In this document: in pieces, positions 7,683-61,262 of the stretch
Layout: every line of letters starts with the position of its first letter
How positions within the stretch are numbered: position 1 is the stretch's first letter
Source of the DNA: a virus
Taxonomy: Duplodnaviria; Caudoviricetes
Virus record (IMG/VR): IMGVR_UViG_3300001525_000092
Coordinates: 84,149 to 148,148 of that record
Length of the DNA: 64,000 bases
Strand: one strand, 5' to 3'
Made by a program: the position numbers and the translations under genes
Notes under the pieces: model-generated
What the model was told of the DNA's origin: nothing
Seen by the model: only the letters and a program-made list of their open reading frames with translations
Database searches by the model: none

Positions 7683-7782
7683 GATGCCGCCAGAAGTCGC
7701 TGGGCGCCGCTGGCGGCCGCGAAATGACTCAGACTATAAATTATATATCTGGACAAATTTTAAGGCCGCCAGCGTCAAATTT
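7683..7782 (+). repeat. dispersed GC-rich inverted-repeat element, copy A
   Basis: Near-identical to 32743, 52486 and (reverse) 61160; arms GCTGGCGGCC/GGCCGCCAGC around an AT-rich core. Confidence 0.95.
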
Positions 7783-7813
7783 AGCTTATTCATTAAACTT
7801 TATTAACATTAAT

Positions 7814-8899
7814 ATGAATTATGATGACATAATCATAAATATCATTTATTCTAAATCTAGACCTTCACAAAAATTCCTTAAGAACAAAATAAAATATTCT
7901 AATGTAGTAAATTATCTATTAAATAGATTTGATTATGTTGAAAATGTAAGAGAATCTTTAGATAGAATAAAATATCATATTGAATATAGACCTTGTTGTA
8001 AAAAATGTGGAAATATTGTGAAATACATTGGGTTGCGCAATGGATATCCTAAGTATAGAGATTTTTGTTCTTGCAAATGTTCAATGAATTCAGAACAAAC
8101 AAAAGAAAATCTAAGGAAATCCATACAAGATAAATATGGAGTAGATAATGTATTTCAAGATACTAAGATCAAAGAAAGAATAAAGAATACTTGGATAAAC
8201 AAATATGGTGTAGATAATCCTAGAAAATCAGAATCGATAATTGCTAAAATTAACAACACTTCAATTCGTAGATATGGCACATCATATCCTACGTCTAGTA
8301 CTATAGTTCAAGATAACATAAAAAAATCTATTTTAGCTAAATATGGGTGTAAGTATTATTTTCTAAATAATGAATTTAAAGAAAAATCAAAACTTACTTG
8401 TGTCTGTAAATATGGTGTAGACAATTACATGAAAAGTGAAAAAGCGCGGATATACATGCATGAAAAGATGTCTACAATTGAAGTACAACAAAAAAGAATA
8501 AATACTTGCATAAAACATAATACTTTCAATACTTCTAAAGTAGAAGAAGAACTTCACTCATATATAAAAGAAAAATTTCCTTCAGTAAAGAGACAATATA
8601 GAGACAAAGAAAGATATCCATACAACTGTGACTTCTATATACCTGAGTTCGATTTATTCTTGGAATTGCAAGGGAATTGGACACATGGAAAGCATGCATT
8701 TGATTCTACTTCTAAAGAAGATCAAGTCATATTAGAGGAATGGAAAGAGAAAAGCAAAGAACACCCTTACTATAGCAACGCAATAAAGACTTGGACTATA
8801 TATGATGTGAATAAAAGAAACAAAGCAAAAGAAAACAACTTAAATTTTAAAGAAGTTTGGTCTCTAGATGAAGGAAAAGCATTCATAAATAATTTATAA
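7814..8899 (+). CDS. putative homing endonuclease (CxxC, KYGVDN repeats, C-terminal PD-(D/E)xK/Vsr-like domain)
   Basis: Several KYGVDN-type repeats; YPYNCDFYI...LELQG.WTHG; very AT-rich versus flanks; start 7814 (7724 lies inside the repeat). Confidence 0.75.
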   Translation: MNYDDIIINIIYSKSRPSQKFLKNKIKYSNVVNYLLNRFDYVENVRESLDRIKYHIEYRPCCKKCGNIVKYIGLRNGYPKYRDFCSCKCSMNSEQTKENLRKSIQDKYGVDNVFQDTKIKERIKNTWINKYGVDNPRKSESIIAKINNTSIRRYGTSYPTSSTIVQDNIKKSILAKYGCKYYFLNNEFKEKSKLTCVCKYGVDNYMKSEKARIYMHEKMSTIEVQQKRINTCIKHNTFNTSKVEEELHSYIKEKFPSVKRQYRDKERYPYNCDFYIPEFDLFLELQGNWTHGKHAFDSTSKEDQVILEEWKEKSKEHPYYSNAIKTWTIYDVNKRNKAKENNLNFKEVWSLDEGKAFINNL

Positions 8900-8903
8900 T
8901 AAA

Positions 8904-8931
8904 GAAAGTCCATTCAATTGAATGGACTTTC
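8904..8931. terminator. perfect 28-bp palindrome between convergent genes (bidirectional terminator)
   Basis: GAAAGTCCATTCAA|TTGAATGGACTTTC. Confidence 0.7.
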
Positions 8932-8954
8932 ACTATGTTAAATATTCACTTATA

Positions 8955-9221
8955 TTAGATAAAGAGTATCTCATTGAAATAGTCATTGTCAAGATGTTCT
9001 TGAACATATGCTTTTGCGTCCAATAGCGATTGACTCTCATTGATGCATCCATCAGATGCTTGCAATGTGATGTCATTGTTTTCTGTAAGTTCAAGATCAA
9101 CATTGAAGTGCTCTTTCAAGAATGAGCTACACTTTATGATTTCACAATCATAGTTCACTACTTTCTTCACGAACTCTTTGCATTCTTTAGTCTCAAATAT
9201 CTTGTCATCTGTAAATTCCAT
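8955..9221 (-). CDS. hypothetical protein
   Basis: 88-aa acidic ORF in the minus-strand block. Confidence 0.65.
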   Translation of the reverse strand: MEFTDDKIFETKECKEFVKKVVNYDCEIIKCSSFLKEHFNVDLELTENNDITLQASDGCINESQSLLDAKAYVQEHLDNDYFNEILFI

Positions 9222-9253
9222 TTTTAGTAATTGAACATTAATTTATCTTTGCT

Positions 9254-10039: not shown

Positions 10040-10123
10040 ACGATTAAATTTATGTTAACATATATTTCTGTCATTGACTAATATAGAAATCTACGCGTAT
10101 TGATTTCATCAGTCAATGATATT

Positions 10124-22805: not shown

Positions 22806-22878
22806 GGATTGATAGCTTAGATGGTCTGAGCGCTGGACTGAAAATCCAGAGGTCGTGGATCGTTACCACGTCAATCCA
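22806..22878 (+). tRNA. tRNA-Phe(GAA)
   Basis: GGATTGA/TCAATCC acceptor; CTGGA-CTGAAAA-TCCAG; atypical T-loop ATCGTTA. Confidence 0.9.
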
Positions 22879-22917
22879 CTAAGAAAATTGTTCTTTGAAA
22901 TAATGAATACAATGAAT

Positions 22918-22991
22918 GTTCTGTTAACTCAGTTGGATAGAGTACGATACTTTTAATATCGGAGTCATGAGTTCAAGTCTCATACAGAACA
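22918..22991 (+). tRNA. tRNA-Lys(TTT)
   Basis: GTTCTGT/ACAGAAC; CGATA-CTTTTAA-TATCG. Confidence 0.93.
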
Positions 22992-22997
22992 CAACAA

Positions 22998-23285
22998 GAT
23001 TGTCAAGAGATCTCTTCCGAAAATGCAAAGGAATGAGAATCTCAGCATCATTGAAATGTCTTATCAGATATATCGGACAATGATTAATCTGGTTGCTAGA
23101 AAGAACTTGGACAGTTCAAATATAGTTGTTAACTCAAATGCTCACGAGCTCTAGCTGGATATAATCAATGATGAATGATGACATTGAGAAGACATGCATG
23201 AAGTCCGATGCATAGACATGGTCAATATGATGTTTGATCTTCTTCTCATAGGTCATTGTTCTTGGATTGAAAGCGAACAAGAACT
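22998..23285 (+). ncRNA. putative structured ncRNA 1 in tRNA array
   Basis: Nested helices seen by eye (see findings); no ORF. Confidence 0.5.
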
Positions 23286-23306
23286 AAAACAACAAATCGC
23301 TTGCAT

Positions 23307-23391
23307 GGAAGTTTGGCAGAGTGGACTATTGCACTGGTCTTGAAAACCAGAGGTCAGAGATGATCCATAGGTTCGAATCCTATAGCTTCCG
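23307..23391 (+). tRNA. tRNA-Ser(TGA)
   Basis: GGAAGTT/AGCTTCC; CTGGT-CTTGAAA-ACCAG; long variable arm. Confidence 0.93.
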
Positions 23392-23397
23392 CTACTT

Positions 23398-23469
23398 GGG
23401 TGATTGTCAGAGTGGTTTATGTCTGGGTCTGCAAAACCCAGTAGGTTGGTCCGATTCCAACATCACCCT
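23398..23469 (+). tRNA. tRNA-Cys(GCA)
   Basis: GGGTGAT/ATCACCC; TGGGT-CTGCAAA-ACCCA; U73; T-loop TCCGATT. Confidence 0.9.
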
Positions 23470-23475
23470 CAGAAT

Positions 23476-23708
23476 AGATTGCAATAGACAAAGTTGTTGC
23501 CTTAGATGGCTTGTCAAGAGACTGATAAGTTCTGGTTGAAGTGATACGAGATGTCATACTAAAACTCCAAAATCCGGAAAGTTAAGTCCAGTCCTCAGTT
23601 GCATATTAAAAGAATCAATGCTGCAGTAAATTGATTCTATATAAAGTTGCAAGTTGTCTATGAATGCAGATGGTAAAGGTTCATAGAAACTCTCGTCTAC
23701 TGCAATCT
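23476..23708 (+). ncRNA. putative structured ncRNA 2 (~233 nt, closed by a 14-bp stem)
   Basis: AGATTGCAATAGAC pairs with GTCTACTGCAATCT (one mismatch); internal hairpins. Confidence 0.6.
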
Positions 23709-23744
23709 TACAATGGTTACTTATATTGATGGTGACCATGCAAT

Positions 23745-23818
23745 GGTTACTTAGCTCAGTTGGTTAGAGCGCAACATTCATAAAGTTGAGGTCCAAGGTT
23801 CGAATCCTTGAGTGACTA
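23745..23818 (+). tRNA. tRNA-Met(CAT), elongator-like
   Basis: GGTTACT/AGTGACT; CAACA-TTCATAA-AGTTG with an A:A mismatch at the base of the loop. Confidence 0.8.
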
Positions 23819-23828
23819 CAAGTTAATT

Positions 23829-23906
23829 GCATCGGTGGTGTAACTGGAGGTGCACATCTGACTTCCAATCAGAAGGCTTACGCGAGTTCGAATCTCGTCC
23901 GATGCT
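23829..23906 (+). tRNA. tRNA-Gly(TCC)
   Basis: GCATCGG/CCGATGC; TCTGA-CTTCCAA-TCAGA. Confidence 0.92.
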
Positions 23907-23914
23907 CATTTTTC

Positions 23915-23988
23915 GGGGTTATAACTCAGTTGCATAGAGTAAGAAACTTCTAATTTCTAAGTCGTAGGTTGGAATCCTACTAACCCCG
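23915..23988 (+). tRNA. tRNA-Arg(TCT)
   Basis: GGGGTTA/TAACCCC; AGAAA-CTTCTAA-TTTCT; D-loop GC and T-loop TTGGAAT. Confidence 0.9.
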
Positions 23989-24031
23989 CTAGTGCACTTG
24001 GTTTATTTTTAATTAAATAAATTAGGTTTGA

Positions 24032-24961
24032 ATGTATTATAGATGTAAATTTTGTAATAAAGAATTTGATAATAAAAGATCAAAAGGACAACATGAATCA
24101 TTTTGTGATTTAAACCCAAACAAAAGATATTCATGGAATAAAGGAAAAAGTGCAAAGACTGATGATAGAATATTAAAATCAAAAGAAACATTTATAAGAA
24201 GGTATAAAAATGGAGAAATAAAATTTAATCCACACATATGGACACAAGAAGAAAAAAATAATCTTTCTAAAAAACGAAAAGAATGGCTAATGAAAAATCC
24301 TGATAAGCATCCTTGGAGAAATATGAAGCATAATCGTAGTGAGCCTTGTGAAGTTTTAAAAGATTTTCTTAGAAAAAATAGCATTCAATTTATAGAAGAA
24401 TATAATCCAAAAATACAAGATCATAATTATTCTTTAGATATTGCATTTCCTGATATAAAATTTGCAATAGAGGTAAATGGTAATCAACATTATAATAATG
24501 ATGGATCATTAAATGAAAGTTCATTATATAGACATAAATTATTAGAAGCTAATGGATGGAAAATATTAGAATTGCATTATACAAAATGTTATAATTTTGA
24601 CATATCAATATTGGATAAATACGATAACATAGAAGATTTTTATGATAAAGATTACGTAGGAAAATATTTTTCAAGAAAAGAAGAAAGAAAAAGAAAAATA
24701 GAAGAAGAAAGAAAACAAATAATAGAAAATAAAAAAAGAAGAAAATTTCAGAAAGAAGAAGAATTCATTGAAAGAAAAAAAATATTATTAGATTTGTTAA
24801 ATAATTCAAATATTGACTTTAATAAATTCGGATGGGTAAATAAGGCACATCAATATCTATCTAACAAAAATGTTTGGTTTCATTCAAATATGAATAGACA
24901 AATAAAAAAATATATACCTGAATATATTAATTCTTTTTTCTGGAGACACATAAGGACATAA
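24032..24961 (+). CDS. putative homing endonuclease (C2H2-like Zn finger + DUF559/Vsr-like PD-(D/E)xK domain)
   Basis: CKFC..H..FC; YSLDIAFPDIKFAIEVNGNQHY...R...LEANGWKIL; AT-rich; inside tRNA array. Confidence 0.75.
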   Translation: MYYRCKFCNKEFDNKRSKGQHESFCDLNPNKRYSWNKGKSAKTDDRILKSKETFIRRYKNGEIKFNPHIWTQEEKNNLSKKRKEWLMKNPDKHPWRNMKHNRSEPCEVLKDFLRKNSIQFIEEYNPKIQDHNYSLDIAFPDIKFAIEVNGNQHYNNDGSLNESSLYRHKLLEANGWKILELHYTKCYNFDISILDKYDNIEDFYDKDYVGKYFSRKEERKRKIEEERKQIIENKKRRKFQKEEEFIERKKILLDLLNNSNIDFNKFGWVNKAHQYLSNKNVWFHSNMNRQIKKYIPEYINSFFWRHIRT

Positions 24962-25025
24962 TAAAGGAGAGAACTAGCTTATCGAGGAAAAACCCATGAG
25001 CAAAGTCAACCTCCTTGTAGTTGAA

Positions 25026-25101
25026 TAGAGTAGTATATCAATAGGCTAGATTTCTGCATTTGGGATGCAGAGGTTGTCGGTTCGAGTCCGGTCTACTCTA
25101 C
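25026..25101 (+). tRNA. tRNA-Pro(TGG)
   Basis: TAGAGTAG/CTACTCTA; CTGCA-TTTGGGA-TGCAG. Confidence 0.88.
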
Positions 25102-25109
25102 AAATAATT

Positions 25110-25181
25110 GCTCCTGTCGATTAATGGTTAGGTTCTCAGTCTCCAAAACTGATGGTGGTGGTTCGATTCCATCCGGGAGTG
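25110..25181 (+). tRNA. tRNA-Trp(CCA)
   Basis: GCTCCTG/CGGGAGT; TCAGT-CTCCAAA-ACTGA. Confidence 0.9.
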
Positions 25182-25208
25182 CTATGTCAAATATTTAAGC
25201 ATTGAGAT

Positions 25209-25544
25209 ATATATATCATTGAAGATGGCAAGAGAGTTCATTCTTACACTACAGAAGATGGTATCAAGAAGACTTACATACTGCCTAACTTCAGAAAGCC
25301 AAAGACATGGAAAGAGATGAAGAAAGAAGATCCGTGGGCTAAGTATTTGAAGAATAGCTCAACTTCTCATTCTTGGGTATCAGACCAGTTAGATGACAAG
25401 CATGCTATCAAGTTGCAACGTGTCACCAACAAGAAAGTCATCAATGAAGGAATCCAAGAATACATTGATGCTTTTGATGAGAGCTTTGAATGTTGGTTTG
25501 ATGAGACTTTGAATGAATGGAGATCTCTTTATGAGGTAGCATAA
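25209..25544 (+). CDS. hypothetical protein inside tRNA array (start uncertain)
   Basis: The 25317 ORF frame stays open back to TGA 25203, giving a coding-like ~110-aa frame without an upstream ATG. Confidence 0.5.
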   Translation: MYIIEDGKRVHSYTTEDGIKKTYILPNFRKPKTWKEMKKEDPWAKYLKNSSTSHSWVSDQLDDKHAIKLQRVTNKKVINEGIQEYIDAFDESFECWFDETLNEWRSLYEVA

Positions 25545-25553
25545 GATATACAT

Positions 25554-25625
25554 GGTGGATATCGTTCAATGGTAGGACAGAAGATTGTGGTTCTTCTAAT
25601 GAGAGTTCGATTCTCTCTATTCACC
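25554..25625 (+). tRNA. tRNA-His(GTG)
   Basis: G-1 plus GTGGATA/TATTCAC-C; GAAGA-TTGTGGT-TCTTC. Confidence 0.92.
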
Positions 25626-25639
25626 CAATAAAATAAATT

Positions 25640-25724
25640 GGAGAGTTGCCAGAATGGTTAATGGAGCAGTTTGCTAAACTGTAGTCGAGAAATCGGCTTC
25701 TAGGTTCGAGTCCTAGATTCTCCG
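25640..25724 (+). tRNA. tRNA-Ser(GCT)
   Basis: GGAGAGT/ATTCTCC; GCAGT-TTGCTAA-ACTGT; long variable arm. Confidence 0.93.
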
Positions 25725-25739
25725 CTTGAATTTTTATTA

Positions 25740-25822
25740 CGGACTGTGGTGTAATGGCAGCCACGCCAGACTTAGGATCTGGTGTCAGAGATGACGTGTG
25801 GGTTCGAATCCCACCAGTCCGA
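25740..25822 (+). tRNA. tRNA-Leu(TAG)
   Basis: CGGACTG/CAGTCCG; CCAGA-CTTAGGA-TCTGG; long variable arm. Confidence 0.93.
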
Positions 25823-25823
25823 C

Positions 25824-25991
25824 GAAGCACAATCATGTAAATCAACAGGTTAGACCTATAGATACATGAAAGTAAACATGAAGGAAGCTGACTGAACAAC
25901 TTCATCGGTTGAATTAAAATGTATTAATAATAGGACGAGGTAAGACTGCAAACCTTAATTGATATTGCGCGCCATGCATTGTTGCTTCCCA
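25824..25991 (+). ncRNA. putative structured ncRNA 3 (~168 nt, ends in CCA)
   Basis: GAAGCA-CAAT pairs with ATTG-T-TGCTTC, then CCA; internal hairpins; fills the Leu-Leu spacer exactly. Confidence 0.6.
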
Positions 25992-25992
25992 T

Positions 25993-26078
25993 GCCTCGAT
26001 GGCGGAATTGGTAGACGCATTGGACTTAAAATCCAATGTCCAGAAATGGACGTGCAGGTTCGATCCCTGTTCGAGGTA
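25993..26078 (+). tRNA. tRNA-Leu(TAA)
   Basis: GCCTCGA/TCGAGGT; TTGGA-CTTAAAA-TCCAA. Confidence 0.94.
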
Positions 26079-26124
26079 CTTTTTAACATAGATTTTATTT
26101 TTAACTATCTTAAACTTAAAAAAA

Positions 26125-26796
26125 ATGAAATCATTATCACAATACATAACTGAATCTATTGACAAGTCAAAGATTGTCACTAGTTGCAAAGCATACAATG
26201 ATCTTTCTAAGATGCTCAAGTCATTAGGAATGGTATCAAGTGAAGAAGGATCAGAAAATACTTCTTATGAAGACATCATCTCAGCAATAAAGAAGACTAT
26301 TGGTGAAGGTCCTTATTATGTGGTATCAGACAGAAATCCAAAGTCTGCATTCAGTGAGATTGCAAGCAAAGCAGACATCAAGTCAGGTACTGGAACAGAC
26401 AATGGATTCATTGACTTAGTTTCTATCAACAAAGAATACAATGATAGTGATGAAAAGAAGAATGATCCTACCTTTGCGTTCAATGCATGGAAACTTAAGA
26501 TTAAGAATGCAATGTACCAGAACAAAGTCTTGAAGAATGGCAAAGGTCTCACACAAGAGTTAGATGCTAAAGTGAAGCAGATGAAGATGTTGTTTGACTT
26601 AGATCCTATAAAGCTAAGTGCAGTTGCAAGGCACGGAAGAACATCGATAAAGTCTACTTACTTCAAAGTAAGACCTGCTATATTCATTGTCAATGATACT
26701 GTAGTTCCCGGAATAGAGTTTGTAAGTGATACATACACAAGCACTAGAGACGAGAACATCTATGTGTTCTCAGATGAGAAGTTGAAAGACATCTAA
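26125..26796 (+). CDS. putative internal head/ejected protein (MKSLSQYITES N-terminus), paralog 1
   Basis: N-terminus resembles the T4 capsid-targeting sequence; shares GxGPYYVV, DPIKL and VFSx motifs with the next ORF. Confidence 0.6.
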   Translation: MKSLSQYITESIDKSKIVTSCKAYNDLSKMLKSLGMVSSEEGSENTSYEDIISAIKKTIGEGPYYVVSDRNPKSAFSEIASKADIKSGTGTDNGFIDLVSINKEYNDSDEKKNDPTFAFNAWKLKIKNAMYQNKVLKNGKGLTQELDAKVKQMKMLFDLDPIKLSAVARHGRTSIKSTYFKVRPAIFIVNDTVVPGIEFVSDTYTSTRDENIYVFSDEKLKDI

Positions 26797-26830
26797 AATA
26801 TTATTAATCAATTAATATATTATTCAATAA

Positions 26831-27493
26831 ATGAAGTCATTGACACAATACATAGCAGAGTCGTTAGATTCTAGTATCATCAGAGACAAAGCATTCAAGT
26901 TCACTGCATTGTCAAAAGTACTTGACAGAATGAGTGTTCCGACTACTAGATCAGTGAGAGCACAAGCTCAAGAATCCATCAAGAAGTTCTTAGGAAAAGG
27001 TCCATACTATGTAGTTAGATCTGACATGAAGTTCACCAAAGATGTCTTCAAAGAAATTGTTGACAAAGCTGCGGTTGGATCTCATGGCATAGTTGATGTG
27101 ATTGACATCAATAAGCTTTACAAAGATCAGATGGACGAATATGGAAATGCTAGTCCTGAAGTGAGAAAGATGAGAATCAAGAAAGCACTAGAAGTCAACA
27201 AGACACTCAAAGAGAAAGGACTTACTAATGACTTAGATACTCTCCTTAAGAGAATGGAAGACTTAGTGAAAGAAGATCCTATCAAGCTAGATCATTCATA
27301 TACTTTAGGCAACTCTAAAGGAGACTTAGAGAGAAATGTCAACTTCTTCCCTGGAGCATGCATCATTGATGACAAGCTTGTTCCGGTGCTCCAAGCATAC
27401 AATGAGTCAATGTATGCTAAAGACAAGACATTTGTGCTAGTGTTCAGTGAAAGCACACTGAAGAATGGCATCAATGACACTACAGACAAATAA
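26831..27493 (+). CDS. putative internal head/ejected protein (MKSLTQYIAES N-terminus), paralog 2
   Basis: Tandem paralog of 26125-26796. Confidence 0.6.
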   Translation: MKSLTQYIAESLDSSIIRDKAFKFTALSKVLDRMSVPTTRSVRAQAQESIKKFLGKGPYYVVRSDMKFTKDVFKEIVDKAAVGSHGIVDVIDINKLYKDQMDEYGNASPEVRKMRIKKALEVNKTLKEKGLTNDLDTLLKRMEDLVKEDPIKLDHSYTLGNSKGDLERNVNFFPGACIIDDKLVPVLQAYNESMYAKDKTFVLVFSESTLKNGINDTTDK

Positions 27494-27580
27494 AAGACAA
27501 AGTATTTAATACTTTTTAATAGAAATAGTTGTCTATCTAGACTATATTGATATTATAATTAAATGAATAAGTAAATAACA

Positions 27581-27694
27581 ATGAGAACAAATCAACATAC
27601 ATATTATCAAGATACTATTATAGAACAGGCCATTAATTATGATAGCTTGCTCAAGTCTTGTTGTATATGTGATGAGATTGAATTTATCAATTAG
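27581..27694 (+). CDS. 37-aa small ORF upstream of the second tRNA block
   Basis: MRTNQHTYYQDTIIEQAINYDSLLKSCCICDEIEFIN*; followed by hairpin 27734-27765. Confidence 0.4.
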   Translation: MRTNQHTYYQDTIIEQAINYDSLLKSCCICDEIEFIN

Positions 27695-27780
27695 CCTCCA
27701 CTGTTTTAAAACGACAACATAAACCTCAAGACAAGAGCAATGCAATTCATTTGTGTTGCTCTTTGTTGATTCAACATAAT

Positions 27781-27854
27781 AGGTGATTATATCAGTTGGT
27801 TAGATAGCTTGCCTGATAAGCAAGAGGTCGCAAGTTCAAGTCTTGCATCACCTA
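27781..27854 (+). tRNA. tRNA-Ile(GAT)
   Basis: AGGTGAT/ATCACCT; CTTGC-CTGATAA-GCAAG. Confidence 0.93.
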
Positions 27855-27949
27855 CAAAAAAAATGAAAAAGTTCTTTGAAATGATGAAATAATTCCTAGA
27901 TATTCTATATTAATAATGTACGTAACAAAACAATAAAAATTTAATTATT

Positions 27950-28153
27950 ATGAATATGAATAGATTAAAGAACAACATTAAGATACTTGATATATTGAGA
28001 CAACTTGCTCATGAGTTTCCTAATATGAGATTTCATCAGTTGCTTATGGCAGTGAATGCTACTATTGATGAAGATCAGTTCTATGAAGAATCAAGTGTTA
28101 CTTTAAATAGAATTAGAAAATTCCTTAAGAATAAGCAAGAGATGTTCAATTAA
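27950..28153 (+). CDS. small hypothetical phage protein
   Basis: FPNMRFHQLL...DQFYEES motif; promoter motif at 27884-27911. Confidence 0.65.
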   Translation: MNMNRLKNNIKILDILRQLAHEFPNMRFHQLLMAVNATIDEDQFYEESSVTLNRIRKFLKNKQEMFN

Positions 28154-28168
28154 TGTAAGTATATAAAC

Positions 28169-28242
28169 GGTGCGTTTGACAAGTGGTTAAGTCGCCAGCT
28201 TTTCACGCTGGTATTTCATCAGTTCGAATCTGATACGCACTA
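28169..28242 (+). tRNA. tRNA-Glu(TTC)
   Basis: GGTGCGT/ACGCACT; CCAGC-TTTTCAC-GCTGG. Confidence 0.92.
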
Positions 28243-28251
28243 CTTTATATT

Positions 28252-28291
28252 GGGTAGATAGGTAAGTGGTTAAAACGGCTTGACTGTAAAT
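28252..28291 (+). pseudogene. 5' half of tRNA-Tyr(GTA), broken just after the anticodon loop
   Basis: GGGTAGA TAGGTAAGTGGTTAAAACGG CTTGA CTGTAAA, then unrelated sequence; I found no TCAAG...T-arm...TCTACCC 3' half in the array. Confidence 0.75.
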
Positions 28292-28521
28292 AATTTAATT
28301 GTTGTATGTTCAAATCATCATAGAATGATACATGTAAATAATGTTATTCAATAGATTATTTACAAAATTTATCTATTGAGAACACATTTAACAATTGGAA
28401 AGACTATTATCATTTAGAACGATAGAATGGGTCAAAGGAACAAATGATAATCATGACGAAACAGATGCAAGAAATTGCATAGGAGATTGATGTGTGGCTA
28501 GTCAACCTTAAGACTTATCTA
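28255..28521 (+). ncRNA. putative structured ncRNA 4 fused to the tRNA-Tyr half
   Basis: TAGATAGGT/ACTTATCTA closing stem; several long internal hairpins. Confidence 0.5.
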
Positions 28522-28595
28522 GGTGCATTAGTTCAGTTGGTTAGAGCGCTACCCTGTCACGGTAGAAGTCATCGGTTCGAATCCGATATGTACCG
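28522..28595 (+). tRNA. tRNA-Asp(GTC)
   Basis: GGTGCAT/ATGTACC; CTACC-CTGTCAC-GGTAG. Confidence 0.93.
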
Positions 28596-28605
28596 CAAAA
28601 GAAAT

Positions 28606-28676
28606 TGGACTATAGTATAATGGCAGTACAGAAGATTTTGGTTCTTCTAGTCGGAGTTCGAATCTCCGTGGTCCAA
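28606..28676 (+). tRNA. tRNA-Gln(TTG)
   Basis: TGGACTA/TGGTCCA; GAAGA-TTTTGGT-TCTTC. Confidence 0.92.
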
Positions 28677-28683
28677 CAAACAT

Positions 28684-28756
28684 TGAGATATGGTGTAATG
28701 TGGTAACATCCAAGTCTCTGGAACTTGTGTTCTTCGTTCGAATCCAGATATCTCAA
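28684..28756 (+). tRNA. tRNA-Gln(CTG), distorted T-stem
   Basis: TGAGATA/TATCTCA; CAAGT-CTCTGGA-ACTTG; T-stem TCTTCG/CCAGA is mismatched. Confidence 0.75.
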
Positions 28757-28775
28757 CAAAAAAATGAAAAGTTCT

Positions 28776-28804
28776 TTGAAATTTTTAATATAACTTTCTA
28801 TATT
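28776..28804 (+). promoter_or_regulatory. promoter TTGAAA-N17-TATATT
   Basis: Repeated motif inside the tRNA array. Confidence 0.7.
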
Positions 28805-28833
28805 ATAAAAGTAAATACATAAAAATGTATATC

Positions 28834-28907
28834 GGGCTTGTAGCTCAGTCGGTTAGAGCAGCACACTCATAATGTGACGGTCTCGGGTTCAAATCCTGAC
28901 TGGCCCA
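28834..28907 (+). tRNA. tRNA(CAT), probably Ile2 (lysidine type)
   Basis: GGGCTTG TAGCTCAG body is Ile-like; CACA-CTCATAA-TGTG. Confidence 0.85.
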
Positions 28908-28922
28908 CTTTAATTTTTAATT

Positions 28923-29753
28923 ATGCCTAATCAATATACAAAATCATCAAATGGATTATTAGAATATAAAAAATACCATTATTTCTATAAAATAACTAAT
29001 CGTTTAAATGGTAAATATTATTATGGAATACATTCAACTGATAATTTAAATGATAGATATAAAGGTTCTGGTATAAGATTACATGAAGCATATAAAAAAT
29101 ATGGCATTAATAATTTTAAGAAAGAAATATTAAAATTTTTTAAAACTAGAAAAGAGGCTTCAAAATATGAAAATAAAATAGTTACAGAAGATGAAGTTAA
29201 TTCTGATAAATGTTATAATTTAACTGTAGGAGGTGATAAAGGTATATCCAATGCTTTTAAAGGAAAACATCATACAGAAAAGACAAAACAAATTGTATCT
29301 AAAAAATTAACAATACCTGATGATAAGTTGATTCTTAAAAGGAGAATGATGCATAAAGATGGTATTAAAAAATCTGTTAAAATAGAAGATATTCAAACAT
29401 ATAAAGAAAATGGATGGATTTTAGGAGGATCAAATTCTTCTTATATTCATACTAAGGAAGAATATTTAGATATATTAAAAGAAAGAAAAAGAAAACGAAT
29501 TGAAAAGGAAAATATATTAAAAGGAAATAGAATAAAAGAAAAGAAAAGAATTCATTCAATATTATTAAATATTGCAAAAGATGATAACATAAAATTAAAT
29601 AAATTTGGATGGAATAAAATTATTATTAAATTATTAAAAGAACAAAATATTATTATTAATTCTAATATAAGAAGATTTATAACAAATAATTGTCCTGAAT
29701 TCTTTAATTATAAAGAAGTTTATAATAAAACATATATCGCGGATGTGGTGTAA
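28923..29753 (+). CDS. GIY-YIG (Seg-like) homing endonuclease with NUMOD3
   Basis: YFYKITNRLNGKYYYGIH...YKGSG..L..A.KKYG..NFKKEIL...YNL..GG; FKGKHHTEKTK; stop codon lies inside the next tRNA. Confidence 0.85.
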   Translation: MPNQYTKSSNGLLEYKKYHYFYKITNRLNGKYYYGIHSTDNLNDRYKGSGIRLHEAYKKYGINNFKKEILKFFKTRKEASKYENKIVTEDEVNSDKCYNLTVGGDKGISNAFKGKHHTEKTKQIVSKKLTIPDDKLILKRRMMHKDGIKKSVKIEDIQTYKENGWILGGSNSSYIHTKEEYLDILKERKRKRIEKENILKGNRIKEKKRIHSILLNIAKDDNIKLNKFGWNKIIIKLLKEQNIIINSNIRRFITNNCPEFFNYKEVYNKTYIADVV

Positions 29754-29808
29754 AGGTAGCATACGAGGCTCATAACCTCGAAGAGCCGTTCGAGTCGGAC
29801 ATCCGCAA
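29738..29808 (+). tRNA. tRNA-Met(CAT), initiator-like
   Basis: CGCGGATG/CATCCGCA with a C:A top mismatch; CGAGG-CTCATAA-CCTCG; short T-stem. Confidence 0.8.
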
Positions 29809-29818
29809 CAAAATAAAT

Positions 29819-29892
29819 TGGAACTTAGCTCAGTTGGTTAGAGCAATTGACTGTTAATCAATAGGTCATCGGTTCGAATCCGATAGTTCCAG
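29819..29892 (+). tRNA. tRNA-Asn(GTT)
   Basis: TGGAACT/AGTTCCA; ATTGA-CTGTTAA-TCAAT. Confidence 0.94.
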
Positions 29893-29996
29893 CAAACGGC
29901 AACGATTATTTAGAGGCGGCCTAACTTAAGGCTACTCAATTGGATATGGTCAAGCTAATCACTTGAGATGGTCAAGCATCGCCAAACTCTTGACAT

Positions 29997-30070
29997 GGGC
30001 TGATAGTTCAGTTGGTTAGAACATTTGCTTTGCAAGCAAGAGGTCCTGAGTTCGATTCTCAGTCGGTCCA
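29997..30070 (+). tRNA. tRNA-Ala(TGC)
   Basis: GGGCTGA/TCGGTCC with G3:U70; loop TTTGCAA. Confidence 0.94.
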
Positions 30071-30080
30071 CAACACAATT

Positions 30081-30152
30081 GCTCCGATAGCACAGTGGTA
30101 GTGCAGCTCACTTGTAATGAGCAGGTCGTTGGTTCGAATCCGACTCGGAGCT
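30081..30152 (+). tRNA. tRNA-Thr(TGT)
   Basis: GCTCCGA/TCGGAGC; GCTCA-CTTGTAA-TGAGC. Confidence 0.94.
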
Positions 30153-30168
30153 CTCCTCTGCTGATTTT

Positions 30169-31895: not shown

Positions 31896-31994
31896 ATGAA
31901 GTTACTGAAAAAAATAGGAAACATCTACTTGAGAGTGATTGCACTTTCATTAGACTATCCTTATGAACAAATGAATTTTATCAACAAAACATGA
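31896..31994 (+). CDS. small peptide 1 (32 aa)
   Basis: MKLLKKIGNIYLRVIALSLDYPYEQMNFINKT*; ATGA-coupled to the next ORF. Confidence 0.55.
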   Translation: MKLLKKIGNIYLRVIALSLDYPYEQMNFINKT

Positions 31995-32319: not shown

Positions 32320-32742
32320 ATGAACTTCAATGACATGGCTATATACATAAAGAAAGGAATCAAAGGAAACTTCTTCACTAAGCTAGTGCAACAAAATAGT
32401 GGATATAGTAGCAAGAGCTTCTTTCTTGTGATAGTGACTATAATAGGAACATTGCTTCTTGCTGTCCCTATATTTGTTCTAGGAATAGAAGCTTGGTTCA
32501 ACCACACTATAGCTACTGACTTGAATGGTGTAGCAGCATACATAGCAGCGGTAGCAGCTGTCTTCACTTCTGTAGGTCTCACCAAAGTGTGGTCTGAGAA
32601 GTATGAGCACCGATTGCCTGGCCCAGATGGAAAGATTGGCACTGATGATGACATCATAGTGAATGTCACAGATGAAGAATATGACAAGATATTAGCAATG
32701 ATGAAAGAGAAAGAAAATGCTAATGATACAAGTTTCTCTTAA
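32320..32742 (+). CDS. two-TM membrane protein, holin-like
   Basis: Two hydrophobic helices, charged C-terminus, GPDGKIGTDDD loop. Confidence 0.55.
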   Translation: MNFNDMAIYIKKGIKGNFFTKLVQQNSGYSSKSFFLVIVTIIGTLLLAVPIFVLGIEAWFNHTIATDLNGVAAYIAAVAAVFTSVGLTKVWSEKYEHRLPGPDGKIGTDDDIIVNVTDEEYDKILAMMKEKENANDTSFS

Positions 32743-32842
32743 GATGCCGCCAGGAGTCGCTGGGCGCCGCTGGCGGCCGCGAAATGGCTTAGACTATAAA
32801 TTATATTAGGGCAACATTTTCAAGGCCGCCAGCGTCAAATTT
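32743..32842 (+). repeat. dispersed GC-rich inverted-repeat element, copy B
   Basis: Starts at the base after the TAA of 32320-32742. Confidence 0.95.
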
Positions 32843-32875
32843 CACATTTGTTAACATTTCATCATATCAATTATA

Positions 32876-45849: not shown

Positions 45850-47256
45850 ATGCCGAAGAAAGTAGAAAATAAAGTAATTGTCAAGAAAGACATACAGAAG
45901 TCAGTCACTGATTTTCTTAATATTGAATACTTGAATTATTCATTGGCCACGGTCGGAGATCGCGCCATACCTTCTATATGTGATGGATTCAAGCCTGGTG
46001 CAAGAAAGATAGTGCATGCAATGTTTGAAGGATCATTGAAGAATGGATCAACATCTAAGTTGCTTGCGCTTGTTGGTGACACGATGAAGATATCTTTGTA
46101 TGCACATGGAGATGCTTCTTTGACTGGAAGTGTCTGCACATTAGCTAAAGACTTCTATAATTTTTACAATCCATTAGAAATTGAAGGACAAGGCGGATAT
46201 CTACGCAGTCCAGAAGCTGGTGCACCTCGATACCTTTATATTAGAAAGTCAAAGTGGGCAGACTTAGTGTACAAGACAGACTATGACTTATTGAAGTATG
46301 TGTTTGAAGAAGGTGACTATGTTGAGCCTGAGCATTACCTTCCTATAGTTCCAACTGTTCTCTCGAACTTAACACTAGGTATTGCCAATGGATATTCGTT
46401 CCATACTAATGCATGGAATCCTATAGACATCATTGATTGCTGTCTAGAGAAGCTAAAGTCAAAGAAAGCTATTGACAAGTTCAAGACTGTTGTCAGGCCA
46501 TACTTGCGTGACATACCGCAAGACAACTGGAAATGCGAGTCAGGACAATGGTTCTGCTATGGTGAGTGGAAGACTAATCAGTCAAAGGACATCATGACTA
46601 TCACTAATCTTCCGTCAGACACTACTTATGTTGAGTTTGAGAAGCTACTGAACAAGCTTTGTGACAAGCAAGAGATCAAAGACTACAAAGACTTGTCAGA
46701 AGATGGCAATGTCCATTATGAGATAACCTTCTTCAAAGGACAGCTTGCTAAAGAGATCAAGTCAGACAGATCAGGAAAGAGACTTGCTAACAAGTTCAAG
46801 CTCATCAAGAAGTTGCCTGATGACTTGCTCTGGCTTCTTGATGAGAATGGAAAGCTCAAGTTCTTCAAAGACAGATATGATGTAATCAACTACTTTGTGA
46901 ACTGGAGACTTTCTATATATACAGAACGAAAGAAGAAGTTAGTGAAGTTGCTAGAAGAGAAGTACAAGAGCAACTCTGACTTAGTCAAGTTCATAGAGTT
47001 AGTATGCAAAGGAAAGCTCAAGTTGCGCAACAGAAGCAAGAAGGACATCAAGGCAGACATGGATGTTGCAAAGCTTCCATTCAACTTGATATCCACTCCT
47101 ATGTCTAAAGTGACCATAGAAGAGAGAGATGAGCTTCTGAAGCAGAATGAAGAGATCAAGAAGCAGCTTGAGTACATCAAGAACACAACAGAGAAGCAGA
47201 TGTACATAAATGACTTGACCGAGTTGAGAAAGAACTTAGTCAATGACTTCAAGTAA
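45850..47256 (+). CDS. DNA topoisomerase II medium subunit (T4 gp52 / GyrA-like)
   Basis: RAIPSICDGFKPGARKI, YAHGDASL, catalytic APRY, EP.HYLPIVP. Confidence 0.95.
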   Translation: MPKKVENKVIVKKDIQKSVTDFLNIEYLNYSLATVGDRAIPSICDGFKPGARKIVHAMFEGSLKNGSTSKLLALVGDTMKISLYAHGDASLTGSVCTLAKDFYNFYNPLEIEGQGGYLRSPEAGAPRYLYIRKSKWADLVYKTDYDLLKYVFEEGDYVEPEHYLPIVPTVLSNLTLGIANGYSFHTNAWNPIDIIDCCLEKLKSKKAIDKFKTVVRPYLRDIPQDNWKCESGQWFCYGEWKTNQSKDIMTITNLPSDTTYVEFEKLLNKLCDKQEIKDYKDLSEDGNVHYEITFFKGQLAKEIKSDRSGKRLANKFKLIKKLPDDLLWLLDENGKLKFFKDRYDVINYFVNWRLSIYTERKKKLVKLLEEKYKSNSDLVKFIELVCKGKLKLRNRSKKDIKADMDVAKLPFNLISTPMSKVTIEERDELLKQNEEIKKQLEYIKNTTEKQMYINDLTELRKNLVNDFK

Positions 47257-47267
47257 TGCATACAATT

Positions 47268-47365
47268 CCGCTGGATGGCCTTTAGGCGCCGCTGGCGGCC
47301 ATGAAATAGCCTGTCTTAATAATTATGTTAGGATGAGATTTTCATGGCCGCCAGCGGCGCCTAAA
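47268..47365 (+). repeat. dispersed GC-rich inverted-repeat element, divergent copy C
   Basis: Perfect 26-bp IR: TTTAGGCGCCGCTGGCGGCCATGAAA (47281-47306) and 47340-47365. Confidence 0.9.
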
Positions 47366-47423
47366 ACTTTATGATTAAATAGAGTTTTTCTTTGAAATTT
47401 TTATAGTTTGTTCTATATTATAT

Positions 47424-50565: not shown

Positions 50566-50630
50566 AAATAGTTTGAAATATAAATAGATTGTTCTATATT
50601 TAGTACGTAAATTCTAAATGTAGAACAATT

Positions 50631-52478
50631 ATGGCATATATACTTAAGCATCCTACTTGGTTCTCGGAGAGACCAAGATGCAAGACAAACAACTTTGGCA
50701 TCATTCCATCTTCTAAGTTCTTGTATAAAGAGAATGAGATTGAAGCATACAAGAATAGCTCATCATTGATGTCACAAGCATTGATGATTGTGTCAAATCA
50801 AGTGACAGAGAAGTCTGCATCACTCATATGCAAGAAGAACTCTGATTCTAGTTATACTAATGGCAAGAGAATTGTCATTGGAATGAATCCAATCAAGCAA
50901 CATGATGACTTGTTTGATGGCATGGACATTGAGATTGGATTAGCATGTCATGAGTCATGTCACTGTGCTTACACTGACTTCAATGACTATTCTATGATGA
51001 AGTGCAACTATCCTATAGCTCACTGGCTTCATAACTTATATGAAGATGAGTGCATAGAAGAGATGCTAGGAAAGAGATATCCACAATGGATGCACTTCTT
51101 AGATGCTATCATCAGTCATTACTTCACTTCTAAGAAGTTCATCTCAGAGACTAAGAAGCTATATGACACAGATGACAATATTGGAATAGCTCAGTTCATG
51201 ATATTGTTCATGGTCAGAAAGTCAGAGTTCTCTAATAGATTTCCATCTGAATGGATGGATCAGTTTGGTCCTATGCTTGACGAGATATATGAGAAAGTGA
51301 TAGTGAATCTAGAGAAAGCAAAAGACAACTGTCAGTACACTCCTACTTCACTCACTTCTAAGTCAGCATTAGATACTATAGAGATTATCAAGAAGTATGT
51401 CACTCTTGATGACTTAGTTTCTAAGCTGAAGAAACCAAGTCTTGGAATGATAGGAAATAGTTCTTCAGAAGGAAATCCTAATCAAGACAAGAACTGTGGC
51501 GAGAATGGACTGTTCAGTCCAAACACTAGAAAAGACAGAAAGAAGTCAAGCGATGCTATTGACAATAGATATGAGAATGCAAAGAAAGAAGCAAATAAAG
51601 AAGAATCTAGCAAAGATGGACAGTCTAGTCCTGTCAACAAAGCAGAGTTCAATACTGCATCGAAAGAGATAGGAGCAGCCAAGCCAACTCAATCAGACAT
51701 TGCAAAGTACAACAGAGCAGCTAGTCAAGTAAGAGAAGAAATTTCTATTGCTAAGAGAATAATCATTCCTAATGACAAGAAAATTGAATTAGAAGATGAT
51801 AAGTTCCATCGAAATGGCCAGCTCATCAACTCTCATCTTGTCCAGGCAATCCAAGGAGTGAACTGTGTCTATCAAAGAAAAGTGCAGAAAGTCAAAGATT
51901 CTACCAATCCAAAATATGCTTTTGTCATAGCAATAGATGAATCTGGATCAATGGGATATGGAACTACATTGTGTCCTAGCATCATAGCTAGCTATCTTTC
52001 TATCATATTCTATGAGGCAATGAAAGACTTTCCTGGCATAGACATCTTCATATATGGACATGGAGACAATGTAGTCAAGTATGTGAGTCCTAAAGACAAG
52101 AACCCAGGAAGACTTGCTTGTCGTCAAGTTCAACTAAGTCAGAATGAAGCTATCTCTTATGACACTATATTGAGAGATGTAAGATTGCAGACCAACAAGC
52201 AGATATTCTTCTTGAACATCACTGATAGCATGTACTTAGAGGATGACAAGAAGATAATCAGTGTGATTGATAAGTGGAAGCTTGAGAATGTATTGTTTGG
52301 ACTTCTATCCATCAAGACAGAAATACAACATAGTCAATATTCTTATGTAGTCAAGCTCAATGAGTACTTATATGGCGACAGATACATAGAAGTAAATGAG
52401 ACAGAGAATGGAATGAAAGAAGCACTTAAGAAATTTGCTACTATCATAAGAAAGAACTATGACAAGTTCAAGAGATAG
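50631..52478 (+). CDS. vWA-domain protein with N-terminal HExxH (CobT-like MoxR partner)
   Basis: CHESCH..YTD, HN.YEDE.IE, MIDAS DESGSM, ITD; own promoter at 50573-50600. Confidence 0.85.
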   Translation: MAYILKHPTWFSERPRCKTNNFGIIPSSKFLYKENEIEAYKNSSSLMSQALMIVSNQVTEKSASLICKKNSDSSYTNGKRIVIGMNPIKQHDDLFDGMDIEIGLACHESCHCAYTDFNDYSMMKCNYPIAHWLHNLYEDECIEEMLGKRYPQWMHFLDAIISHYFTSKKFISETKKLYDTDDNIGIAQFMILFMVRKSEFSNRFPSEWMDQFGPMLDEIYEKVIVNLEKAKDNCQYTPTSLTSKSALDTIEIIKKYVTLDDLVSKLKKPSLGMIGNSSSEGNPNQDKNCGENGLFSPNTRKDRKKSSDAIDNRYENAKKEANKEESSKDGQSSPVNKAEFNTASKEIGAAKPTQSDIAKYNRAASQVREEISIAKRIIIPNDKKIELEDDKFHRNGQLINSHLVQAIQGVNCVYQRKVQKVKDSTNPKYAFVIAIDESGSMGYGTTLCPSIIASYLSIIFYEAMKDFPGIDIFIYGHGDNVVKYVSPKDKNPGRLACRQVQLSQNEAISYDTILRDVRLQTNKQIFFLNITDSMYLEDDKKIISVIDKWKLENVLFGLLSIKTEIQHSQYSYVVKLNEYLYGDRYIEVNETENGMKEALKKFATIIRKNYDKFKR

Positions 52479-52485: not shown

Positions 52486-52584
52486 ATGCCGCCAGGAGTC
52501 GCTGGGCGCCGCTGGCGGCCGCGAAATGACTCAGACTATAAATTATATATCCGAACAAATTTTAAGGCCGCCAGCGTCAAATTT
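52486..52584 (+). repeat. dispersed GC-rich inverted-repeat element, copy D
   Basis: Near-identical to copy A; 7 nt after the vWA gene stop. Confidence 0.95.
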
Positions 52585-52656
52585 AACATTTGTTAATAGA
52601 TATCATTTTTAATTGATTCTATGACTTATTTTTATCTATAAATTGATTATAAAGAG

Positions 52657-58934: not shown

Positions 58935-58955
58935 TGATATTGTTCTATTATTAGT

Positions 58956-60566
58956 TTATGTTGCTATCTTAGGATAAGAAGAAGTGTTCAAGAACTGCAG
59001 TGTCATGCCTTTTCGTATCAAGTACACTCTCTGTATGAACTTCTGATACTTCACATCATACTCAAATGACATGCCATCTATGTAATACATGCCACTGTCT
59101 CGAGGATTCAAGAATCCGTATCCATCTGCATCTATCTTGTTCTTCAAGTCTTTGTCTAAGGTAATGTTTGCTTTTGCGTCTGGCTTGTCTCCTGTCAAGC
59201 TATCAGCGTTAGCCACCATAGTTCTCTTGCTCTCATTGTCATACTCAAATATCAAGACATTGATGAGTGTTCCTCTCTGAAGCCCAAGATTAGGATTGTC
59301 AAGCTCTATCACTAGTCGCTTTGCTCTGAGTTTCTTAAGATAGTTGTCATGAATCTGTTGCTGCACTAATATAGGTGTGTTGCCGTCATCTTCATTTCCA
59401 AACTCTGATCCTACATCAATTCTCTTGTGATAGTTGTATTCTTTGTATTGCTCATATCCATCTACAGAGTTCTCTTGCATCCTTATGTCTACTTGCTCAC
59501 ATGAGTTGTTGTTTCCATCTTTCACTCCTATTGGATTAGTGAACATTGGAGAGACTATGGCACCACTGTCCTGTATCTTAGTGTTGTCTACTTCATACTT
59601 GTAGTTTGTGAATGTCATGTTAGAGAGAGCAGGCATCTGCTTGAAGTTAGTGAGTATTCTTGCTACCATCTTCGACTCATGATCTTCTCCTACTGCACTG
59701 TTTGTAGGATCTATTCCTAGTGTTGCAATGATTCCAAGCTCATTAGGCTTCACATTCTCTTTCATTATCCAAGGAAGATTCACTACAACAAGATATCTGT
59801 ACAAGTCAATCCAACAGTCAAACACACTATCTGCATCTTTTCCTCCATATGCGACATGCTTCTGGATTGCATCATAGTAGGACTCGTTGTGCAAGAATCT
59901 GAACTTGTCATCAGATATCTCTTTCACTTCTTTAGAAGCAGCTAGACCAAGTCCTAAGTCTGTCACTGCTGCCCAATGCAAGAACTCATAAGTAGTAGGA
60001 TGTGGATTAGGTCCTAGCTGACAATGCTCCGCAGGACATCCTACAGGAGGCTCATTGAACTGTATTTGCTTGCACATTGGCTTGTCTAGCTTCATCAGCT
60101 TGTATGTAGCATAGTAAGTGATCTCATAGCTTGTGTACTTCACTTCTCTGACATAGAAGTCTATAGACACCGGCTTGTATGCACCATCTACTTGTGGTGT
60201 CAGTACTATTGTCATGTCTGCATTCATGCCCGGAATGTCATTAGTAGCACCCTTGTTGTTGAACTGAGTCACCTTCACTATAGCAGAAGGAACAAATCCA
60301 TCATAGTCTATGTACAAGTACTTTATTCTTCTGAAGTCTATCACTAAGTTTCCTACTCTGACTATAGGAATAGCAACACCTTCCACTTTCTTTGTGTCTA
60401 TGTCACCGCTATTGACGCCTCTTATAGAATTAGTTATGTCGCTGAAGTTTATCTTTGCTACTGGACTTGGCTTTATAGTAGGATCATGTCTCACTATAGG
60501 ATCTGTCCTGTTGAGCAATGGCTTGCTAGCAAGCGCTTCATAGTCCCATCCACTCATATTCATCAT
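58956..60566 (-). CDS. putative baseplate hub protein
   Basis: 536 aa; C-terminal SGMYYIDGMSFEY...Q.VYLIR typical of gp27/gpD-like hubs; follows the gp53-like gene. Confidence 0.55.
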   Translation of the reverse strand: MMNMSGWDYEALASKPLLNRTDPIVRHDPTIKPSPVAKINFSDITNSIRGVNSGDIDTKKVEGVAIPIVRVGNLVIDFRRIKYLYIDYDGFVPSAIVKVTQFNNKGATNDIPGMNADMTIVLTPQVDGAYKPVSIDFYVREVKYTSYEITYYATYKLMKLDKPMCKQIQFNEPPVGCPAEHCQLGPNPHPTTYEFLHWAAVTDLGLGLAASKEVKEISDDKFRFLHNESYYDAIQKHVAYGGKDADSVFDCWIDLYRYLVVVNLPWIMKENVKPNELGIIATLGIDPTNSAVGEDHESKMVARILTNFKQMPALSNMTFTNYKYEVDNTKIQDSGAIVSPMFTNPIGVKDGNNNSCEQVDIRMQENSVDGYEQYKEYNYHKRIDVGSEFGNEDDGNTPILVQQQIHDNYLKKLRAKRLVIELDNPNLGLQRGTLINVLIFEYDNESKRTMVANADSLTGDKPDAKANITLDKDLKNKIDADGYGFLNPRDSGMYYIDGMSFEYDVKYQKFIQRVYLIRKGMTLQFLNTSSYPKIAT

Positions 60567-60574
60567 TCATGTTT

Positions 60575-61039
60575 TTAGTACAATACAAGAACATTGTCAT
60601 TAGTGATAGTGTAGTTGTGATCTGTTATAGTAGCCTCATTAGGACTTCTCTCTTCATCATAAGTCTTCTTGTTGTTAGTCTCTTTCTTCAATATAGGACT
60701 GTCATCTACTAAAGAGTCATCTACTTCACTTGTCTTGTTGTCTATCAGTTGATCTACTATAGACGGCACAGGACACACAAGTTCCATTCCTTCATTGAGG
60801 TCAAATGGATTGCTTATCCCATTCAGCTTGCAAAGCACATCAGCATATCTGTCATTTCCATAGATAGCAAGAGAAACTAAGTCAGGCCGCCCTATGTATT
60901 CATGCGTGACTGTCACTAAAGTGACATTCCCGTCTAAGTCAATGTCATTGTTGTATGTCTGCGACAACAAGTTCAGACATTCTACATTGTCTTTAGTAAT
61001 CTTTGTCTTGTGTGAAAGCAAACCATATTCTAGTCCCAT
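60575..61039 (-). CDS. baseplate wedge protein (T4 gp53/LysM-like)
   Basis: GRPDLVSLAIYG...DVLCKLNGISNPFDLNEGMEL.CP. Confidence 0.8.
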   Translation of the reverse strand: MGLEYGLLSHKTKITKDNVECLNLLSQTYNNDIDLDGNVTLVTVTHEYIGRPDLVSLAIYGNDRYADVLCKLNGISNPFDLNEGMELVCPVPSIVDQLIDNKTSEVDDSLVDDSPILKKETNNKKTYDEERSPNEATITDHNYTITNDNVLVLY

Positions 61040-61159
61040 TCTTTCTAATTATTGTTCTTCTATTTAATAATCGAAGAAAATAGAAGAAGTAAGAGAACTA
61101 AGAAGAATATGGATTTTAGACTTGTCTCTTGAACAGAGCCAAAGTGATGTGCGTTAATA

Positions 61160-61262
61160 AATGTTAAATAAGCCGCTGGCGGCCTTGAAATTTGTCCAGA
61201 TATATAATTTATAGTCTGAGGCATTTCGTGGGCGCCAGCGGCGCCCAGCGACTCCTGGCGCC
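61160..61262 (-). repeat. dispersed GC-rich inverted-repeat element, copy E
   Basis: Reverse complement of copy A/D, just after the stop of minus-strand gene 61280-62092. Confidence 0.95.

Follow-up and report, generated by a model that had tools for sequence, protein, structure and literature searches.

The 64,000-nucleotide (nt) stretch analysed here (the window) covers positions 84,149 to 148,148 of the Caudoviricetes record IMGVR_UViG_3300001525_000092, and forms the right part of this 148-kb IMG/VR contig. It carries five copies of a GC-rich inverted-repeat element of ~100–105 nt, placed just after stop codons, which can be securely identified as an old, lineage-specific hairpin module of mosaic build, belonging to a clade of T4-like gut phages with ~290-kb genomes. 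As to its function, we give a probability of roughly one half to the element being a hairpin cassette for transcript ends, whose copies recombination keeps alike within a genome and which acts as a border at which modules are shuffled, similar to the promoter-early stem-loop (PeSL) cassettes of phages and the bacterial interspersed mosaic elements (BIMEs).

All five copies had been reported in a sequence-only reading of the window and were confirmed by repeat-family detection, by alignment, and by a 10-nt arm motif with ten matches (≤1 mismatch, two per copy) against 0.09 expected. The repeat finder and an alignment that included the flanks agreed that similarity extends over ~100 nt and stops at the flanks in every copy. 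On the plus strand, copy A (7683–7782) lies past the stop of the open reading frame (ORF) at 7013–7678; copy B (32743–32842) directly follows the ORF at 32320–32742, at a junction convergent with the large terminase gene (32876–35035, minus strand); copy C (47265–47370) follows the topoisomerase II (topo II) gene (45850–47256), and copy D (52486–52584) the ORF at 50631–52478. Copy E (61160–61264) is on the minus strand, downstream of a tail-fibre-like ORF (61280–62092, minus strand). The gaps between stop codon and element are 4, 0, 8, 7 and 15 nt for copies A to E, respectively, within the 0–20 nt previously claimed, and the same range (median ~8 nt) holds for every copy described below, antisense ones included. 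From the element to the next start there are 50–130 nt at all copies, again including the antisense ones. The 5′ edge of the element is conserved and often provides the stop codon itself.

Each window copy is predicted to fold into a small 5′ hairpin and a long GC-clamped hairpin around an AT-rich core that is itself palindromic, with hairpins of 30–40 bp interrupted by internal loops and energies of −39 to −63 kcal/mol. Copy A exemplifies this layout, with the small 5′ hairpin followed by a main hairpin whose arms (7708–7718 and 7764–7774) enclose the core. The extended stem noted earlier in copy C was reproduced (26 bp, predicted at −63 kcal/mol, z = −8.7), and the suggestion that the stem rather than the core is what is conserved proved correct. 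The element had also been described as a GC and CpG island in a CG-poor genome, and this holds: window copies have 50–54% GC compared with 36.6% for the window, and contribute 7.3% of its CpG from 0.8% of its bases, in a genome where the observed/expected CpG ratio is 0.28. Strong CpG depletion is seen clade-wide, with ratios of 0.24–0.29 in this genome and its complete relative G005, 0.18 in G010 and 0.52 in the distant relative G011.

Five copies, however, was an undercount. An nhmmer profile built from the window copies detected 12 copies on the 148-kb contig and a further 8 on three sister contigs of one metagenome, with the same composition as the window contig. These sister contigs came from a pattern scan of IMG/VR that yielded 36 loci, where all hits outside one metagenome were chance matches in phages of 62–72% GC. 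The four contigs (G000–G003) show no mutual overlap, correspond to complementary stretches of a complete relative's genome without matching any gene twice, and share identical termini of 49–75 nt at three pairs of contig ends; very probably, they represent one ~287-kb genome carrying 20 copies. Two of the three pairs with shared termini are arranged convergently, pointing to inverted repeats or to polymorphism between strains where the assembly broke. The phage is a distant T4-like jumbo phage, with a T4-type large terminase, a phage-type topo II, baseplate-like genes and 23 tRNAs; among cultured phages the best match, Tenacibaculum phage PTm1, is only 30% identical. The 23 tRNA genes form a cluster at window positions 22806–30153 (plus strand), with several unannotated gaps between them. 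The terminase as sole query recovered no related loci, and an exact-protein look-up returned no matches.

Relatives with 87–89% identical topo II were found in IMG/VR and human-gut metagenomes, two of them complete at 283–294 kb. A BLAST search with the element of the present genome found no copy in these relatives; at the junction after topo II they carry an element of the same build with different arms, and each has at least 9–13 such elements. G005 has 16 copies of its own version, and its median reciprocal-best-hit protein identity to our phage is 58%. For about 14 of the 20 sites G005 has a copy at the orthologous junction, and among the window copies only one lacks such a counterpart: copies A and B correspond to the G005 copies at 221175 and 243668, respectively, while the copy C junction at the topo II end holds the relatives' own version. 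One orthologous pair is antisense in both genomes. At the other 6 of 20 sites no G005 copy was detected, which is uninformative at this divergence.

A joint alignment showed the small 5′ hairpin, the inner stem and the centre to be recognisably homologous between the two lineages, whereas the 11-nt outer arms are not. RNAalifold, run on a MAFFT alignment of the 36 copies, missed the main stem, the arms of the two lineages being out of register, and arm complementarity was therefore measured directly. Arms pair with their own partners over a median of 11 nt, compared with 4 nt (maximum 6) in cross-genome chimeras, and the duplex energies are −28 and −18.5 kcal/mol for own arms versus −10 kcal/mol for chimeras; arms taken from different copies within the present genome pair as well as own arms do. 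Copies are thus near-identical within a genome while arms differ wholly between genomes and yet remain complementary, which is concerted evolution. Together with the ~14 of 20 orthologous sites, this identifies an old, position-fixed family and not a recent miniature inverted-repeat transposable element (MITE).

Neither lineage's version had a match in cultured phages, no exact match was found among bacterial and archaeal genomes (one per species), on which ground a host-derived repeat was rejected, and only tRNAs reached the Rfam gathering threshold in the window, copy D giving no score at E up to 5. There is no dispersed family in G011 (L176–L185), in which three long degenerate repeat regions (122–123, 144.7–146 and 191–193 kb) cross-match in both orientations.

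The copies also mark places where the genomes have been rearranged. Colinearity with G005 is broken at 15 of 206 confident gene adjacencies, leaving 10 real breakpoints after contig-end wrap and single mobile genes were set aside. Half of these (5/10) fall on copies, compared with 15 of 192 colinear junctions (p = 0.001); copy D lies on a synteny breakpoint relative to G005. At all five copy-borne breakpoints the partner flanks in G005 also adjoin copies, and therefore four elements have swapped flanks. Gene blocks were exchanged exactly at copies.

We propose that the module would be transcribed as the 3′ end of the upstream message, where its long GC-clamped hairpin may stop or process the transcript or shield it from 3′ exonucleases. 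It would thereby replace the plain hairpin-plus-U terminators that the genome uses at other places and that more distant relatives have at the corresponding gene end. The high recombination activity of T4-like phages would homogenise the dispersed copies through gene conversion, and occasional crossovers between copies would shuffle modules. Among the functions previously considered for the element, such a 3′-end RNA hairpin is the best supported. At the topo II gene end, a scan called a plain hairpin with a T-run in 11 of 44 distinct distant relatives, and the closer relative L100 (80% identity; not called by the scan) is predicted to fold at this end into a small GC hairpin and a 15-bp hairpin, followed by a T-rich tail. 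Both genomes carry dozens of canonical terminators at other places, and such terminators occur at 3 of 33 element junctions versus 52 of 180 others (Fisher p = 0.017, the two genomes not being independent samples). Convergent junctions are enriched for the element (6/20 copies here and 5/16 in G005, versus ~8–12% of junctions), and a T-run immediately follows the 3′ arm in 4–6 of the 16 G005 copies. In 27 of 36 copies the predicted fold is more stable for the sense than for the antisense RNA (mean difference 3.0 kcal/mol, Wilcoxon p = 3e−4); this is the G–U asymmetry expected for selection on RNA, tempered because the copies share ancestry.

A number of observations weigh against this proposal. 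The sequence-only reading argued for RNA from a polarity that always follows the gene, but this strict co-orientation was a small-sample effect and fails genome-wide: at same-strand junctions, 9 copies are co-oriented and 4 antisense in this genome (4/13 informative), and 7 and 3, respectively, in G005 (3/10). Four copies, three at contig positions 16116, 54973 and 75728 and the fourth on a sister contig, run opposite to the genes on either side, and one orthologous pair sits in a divergent gap beside a homing-endonuclease-like gene. The copy at contig position 31988 has canonical bidirectional terminators on both sides and, being so bracketed, is unneeded for termination there. None of the five window copies has a U-tail or T-run, as had been reported, and with ~45 nt enclosed by the main hairpin they depart from the classical form of an intrinsic terminator. 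A third copy of the arm stands at the 5′ end of the element and can point either way, with close relatives differing in this at a single site. The shared ancestry of the copies means that the fold-asymmetry and terminator-exclusivity statistics overstate independence. Finally, the even spacing of copies (see below), the uniform arms and the either-way 5′ arm fit DNA recognition by a protein as well as they fit an RNA role.

Promoters are not part of the conserved unit. A host-type promoter-like motif (TTTGAAAT, ~19 nt, CTATATTA) has 21 strict matches on the contig and 87 in G005, with window sites including 47392–47421 and 50573–50600; the former (plus strand) is located just downstream of copy C, in hairpin-then-promoter order. 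Strict matches follow 2 of 20 copies here and 1 of 16 in G005, and looser matches judged by eye ~6 of 20. A generic promoter and terminator scan performed at chance level only. A second motif, TATAAATA, occurs 18–50 nt upstream of starts, as T4 late promoters do (for example at window positions 50579, 5188 on the minus strand and 10737 on the minus strand), and by this analogy looks like the late promoter of the phage. A late promoter within the element loop was considered and rejected, as the core departs from TATAAATA at the last base and is not conserved in the G005 subtypes. Also rejected was a micro-ORF starting from an ATG in the element: copy E, one copy on a sister contig and every G005 copy lack the ATG, and the end of the frame differs between the two subtypes.

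Accessory modules adjoin several copies. An 18-nt AT-rich palindromic module abuts the 3′ end of copy B (32837–32854, plus strand) and is found again at 52579–52596 after copy D. A small hairpin module with the loop TGAAC lies downstream of copy E (61125–61140, plus strand), in inverted orientation; it also follows other element copies and is tandemly repeated in relatives. In relatives (L066–L072), a 39-nt unit with a TGAAC-loop hairpin, the stem of which covaries between lineages, forms 1–6 tandem repeats after the element downstream of topo II. Arrays of this unit are present at both ends of the G005 record (2–150 and 294439–294470), and the 'direct terminal repeat' of that record may be a break in a repeat array.

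Recognition at the DNA level is the main, though tentative, alternative to a transcript-end role. Here the ~11-nt arm motif, present three or four times per element, would be bound by a co-evolving, probably phage-encoded protein; equally tentatively, the sites could act as a chromosome or recombination organiser, in the form of a topoisomerase/gyrase-type strong site, a domain boundary or a synapsis site, similar to Escherichia coli BIMEs or their RIB subtype. Such a role would be consistent with arms that are uniform within a genome whatever the inner subtype and different wholesale between genomes, with an extra 5′ arm accepted in either direction, with the tolerance of both element orientations, and with the copy insulated by terminators on both sides. 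The arm motif has no occurrence outside the elements in this genome or in G005, and the phage has its own topo II gene. Copies are spaced ~18 kb apart on average, and their spacing in G005 is more even than expected from random junction choice (coefficient of variation 0.53 vs 0.94, P = 0.004), with a minimum gap of 5.9 kb (P = 0.002), although even spacing could also reflect selection against deletions between close repeats. The link to stop codons and the sense-over-antisense fold asymmetry would be unexpected for a pure DNA site. Nor was a candidate binding protein identified: no HU/IHF, no tyrosine recombinase and no Y1 transposase (PF01797; control genomes positive) were found in the four contigs or in complete G005. 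Neither they nor G005 yielded an RNase III. A more ambitious version strikes us as rather doubtful, namely that the arms are the recognition sequence of a co-evolving phage-encoded factor and that ~20 evenly spaced three-arm sites partition the jumbo-phage chromosome. If so, the sites would be topoisomerase or condensation sites or programmed recombination boundaries, and a change in the factor would re-specify the whole set, explaining the wholesale replacement of arms at conserved positions.

It is unlikely that the element is selfish, a mobile non-coding sequence without function for the phage, whether as a MITE, as a relative of repetitive extragenic palindromic (REP) sequences, or spread by homing-endonuclease-driven gene conversion. 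Its dispersal, inverted arms and foreign composition (a CpG island in a CpG-poor genome) are what such an origin would predict, and the 6 of 20 sites with no detected G005 copy could be taken in the same sense, but ~14 of 20 orthologous junctions are occupied at 58% median protein identity, which speaks against recent spread. Target-site duplications, said to be lacking, are indeed absent from the five window copies and not visible in flanked alignments of 5 and 20 copies, so that an ordinary MITE is contradicted on both counts; the REP option lacks its Y1 transposase, and neither the bacterial genomes nor the cultured phages searched contain the element. The window had likewise been said to hold no transposase, and none of the Y1 type was found (DDE transposase families were not searched), although a homing-endonuclease-like gene (Pfam DUF7487, phrog_3339; 7817–8899, plus strand) directly follows copy A and is missing at the orthologous G005 junction. 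The genome has ~7 such paralogues, of which 3 directly adjoin element copies, two of these insertions being absent from G005. An IS607-type pair is located at the left end of sister contig G003 (L063:2–1608, minus strand), where a serine recombinase (Resolvase domain, 200 aa) is followed by a TnpB with OrfB_IS605 and Cas12f1-like TNB domains that runs off the contig end. A role for this TnpA/TnpB pair in spreading the element is at odds with its absence from G005, which has 16 copies of its own, and with the absence of the arm motif from the insertion sequence.

A two-state, translation-coupled RNA attenuator is quite improbable. The 5′ arm, which in most copies of this genome is an 8-nt perfect complement of the middle arm, would pair with it and block the main hairpin; and, with the element starting 0–15 nt past the stop and hence within the ribosome footprint, a ribosome halted at that stop would mask the 5′ arm so that the main hairpin then forms, a step that we rate just as improbable. 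Copies C and 6315 and roughly half of those in G005, however, have the 5′ arm in the opposite sense, its sense varies between close relatives at a single site, the minimum-free-energy structure always favours the main hairpin, and the mechanism is impossible for antisense copies. Least credible of all is a replication origin (an R-loop or unwinding core) or a Chi-like hot spot recognised by a host end-processing nuclease, neither of which gained support: the GC clamps around an AT-rich core, an arm one base from E. coli Chi and the rearrangement breakpoints at copies might evoke one, but ~20 sites per genome are far too many for origins, the AT core differs among subtypes, G005 copies (10 plus, 6 minus) show no orientation bias along the genome, and the arms of the sister lineage are a completely different sequence, making the Chi resemblance look coincidental.

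The family offers a natural experiment, in which ~14 positions conserved at 58% protein identity bear hairpins that are uniform within each genome and have different yet complementary stems. Module exchanges that map to copies, combined with uniform sets, give direct access to the rate at which dispersed cis-elements become uniform in recombination-proficient phages, and bear on what defines exchangeable modules in the jumbo-phage core, beyond accessory regions. If the arms were protein sites, they would represent a new kind of phage chromosome organisation.

Repeated hairpins at gene boundaries are a recurring theme in phages, PeSLs and the RNase III sites of T7 being examples, and the element can be compared with several described systems. 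It resembles intrinsic terminators in having a GC-rich stem at a gene end where distant relatives carry plain terminators, and in the T-run on some G005 copies; it differs in that window copies have no U-tract, enclose ~45 nt, and come with an extra 5′ hairpin and accessory modules. The RNase III sites of T7 and T3 early genes (R0.3–R1.3) are similar long bulged intergenic hairpins in polycistronic messages, with positions conserved among related phages, and after cleavage the upstream message can end in a protective 3′ hairpin. The element shares the intergenic location and the position conserved among relatives, and its predicted hairpin is likewise long and bulged. Unlike those sites, about a third of its copies are antisense, its GC-clamp arms have been replaced wholesale between lineages, and, since the phage has no RNase III of its own, any cleavage would need the host enzyme.

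REP sequences and BIMEs of enterobacteria include the RIB/RIP type, in which two inverted REPs surround an IHF site at the 3′ ends of transcription units; the proposed roles are mRNA 3′-end protection and gyrase or IHF binding. Like these, the element has GC-rich inverted arms around a differing central segment, is extragenic and placed just after stop codons, forms mosaics with other small motifs, and is uniform in sequence and species-specific. It differs by residing in a phage genome with only ~20 copies, by the lack here of a RAYT (Y1 transposase) and of HU/IHF genes, and by arms that do not form REP-like palindromes on their own.

Of the described systems, the closest is the PeSL of T4-type phages, which combines a short stem-loop with an early sigma-70-type promoter, a ribosome-binding site and the start of the next gene, and which clusters in hyperplastic regions among small, early, variable ORFs (Arbiol et al. 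2010, PMC2839356; Comeau et al. 2014, PMC4122927). In contrast to PeSLs, our element is ~100 nt long, a mosaic of two hairpins and accessory modules, and has no promoter as a constant part; its copies are unclustered, recurring every ~18 kb through the core genome near topo II, terminase and tail genes, and its sites have been kept across deep divergence. The likeness lies in a T4-like myovirus genome as its setting, in a repeated intergenic stem-loop at gene boundaries whose sequence is lineage-specific, in a host-type promoter after some copies, and in its presence where related genomes differ by the exchange of gene blocks (5 of 10 breakpoints).

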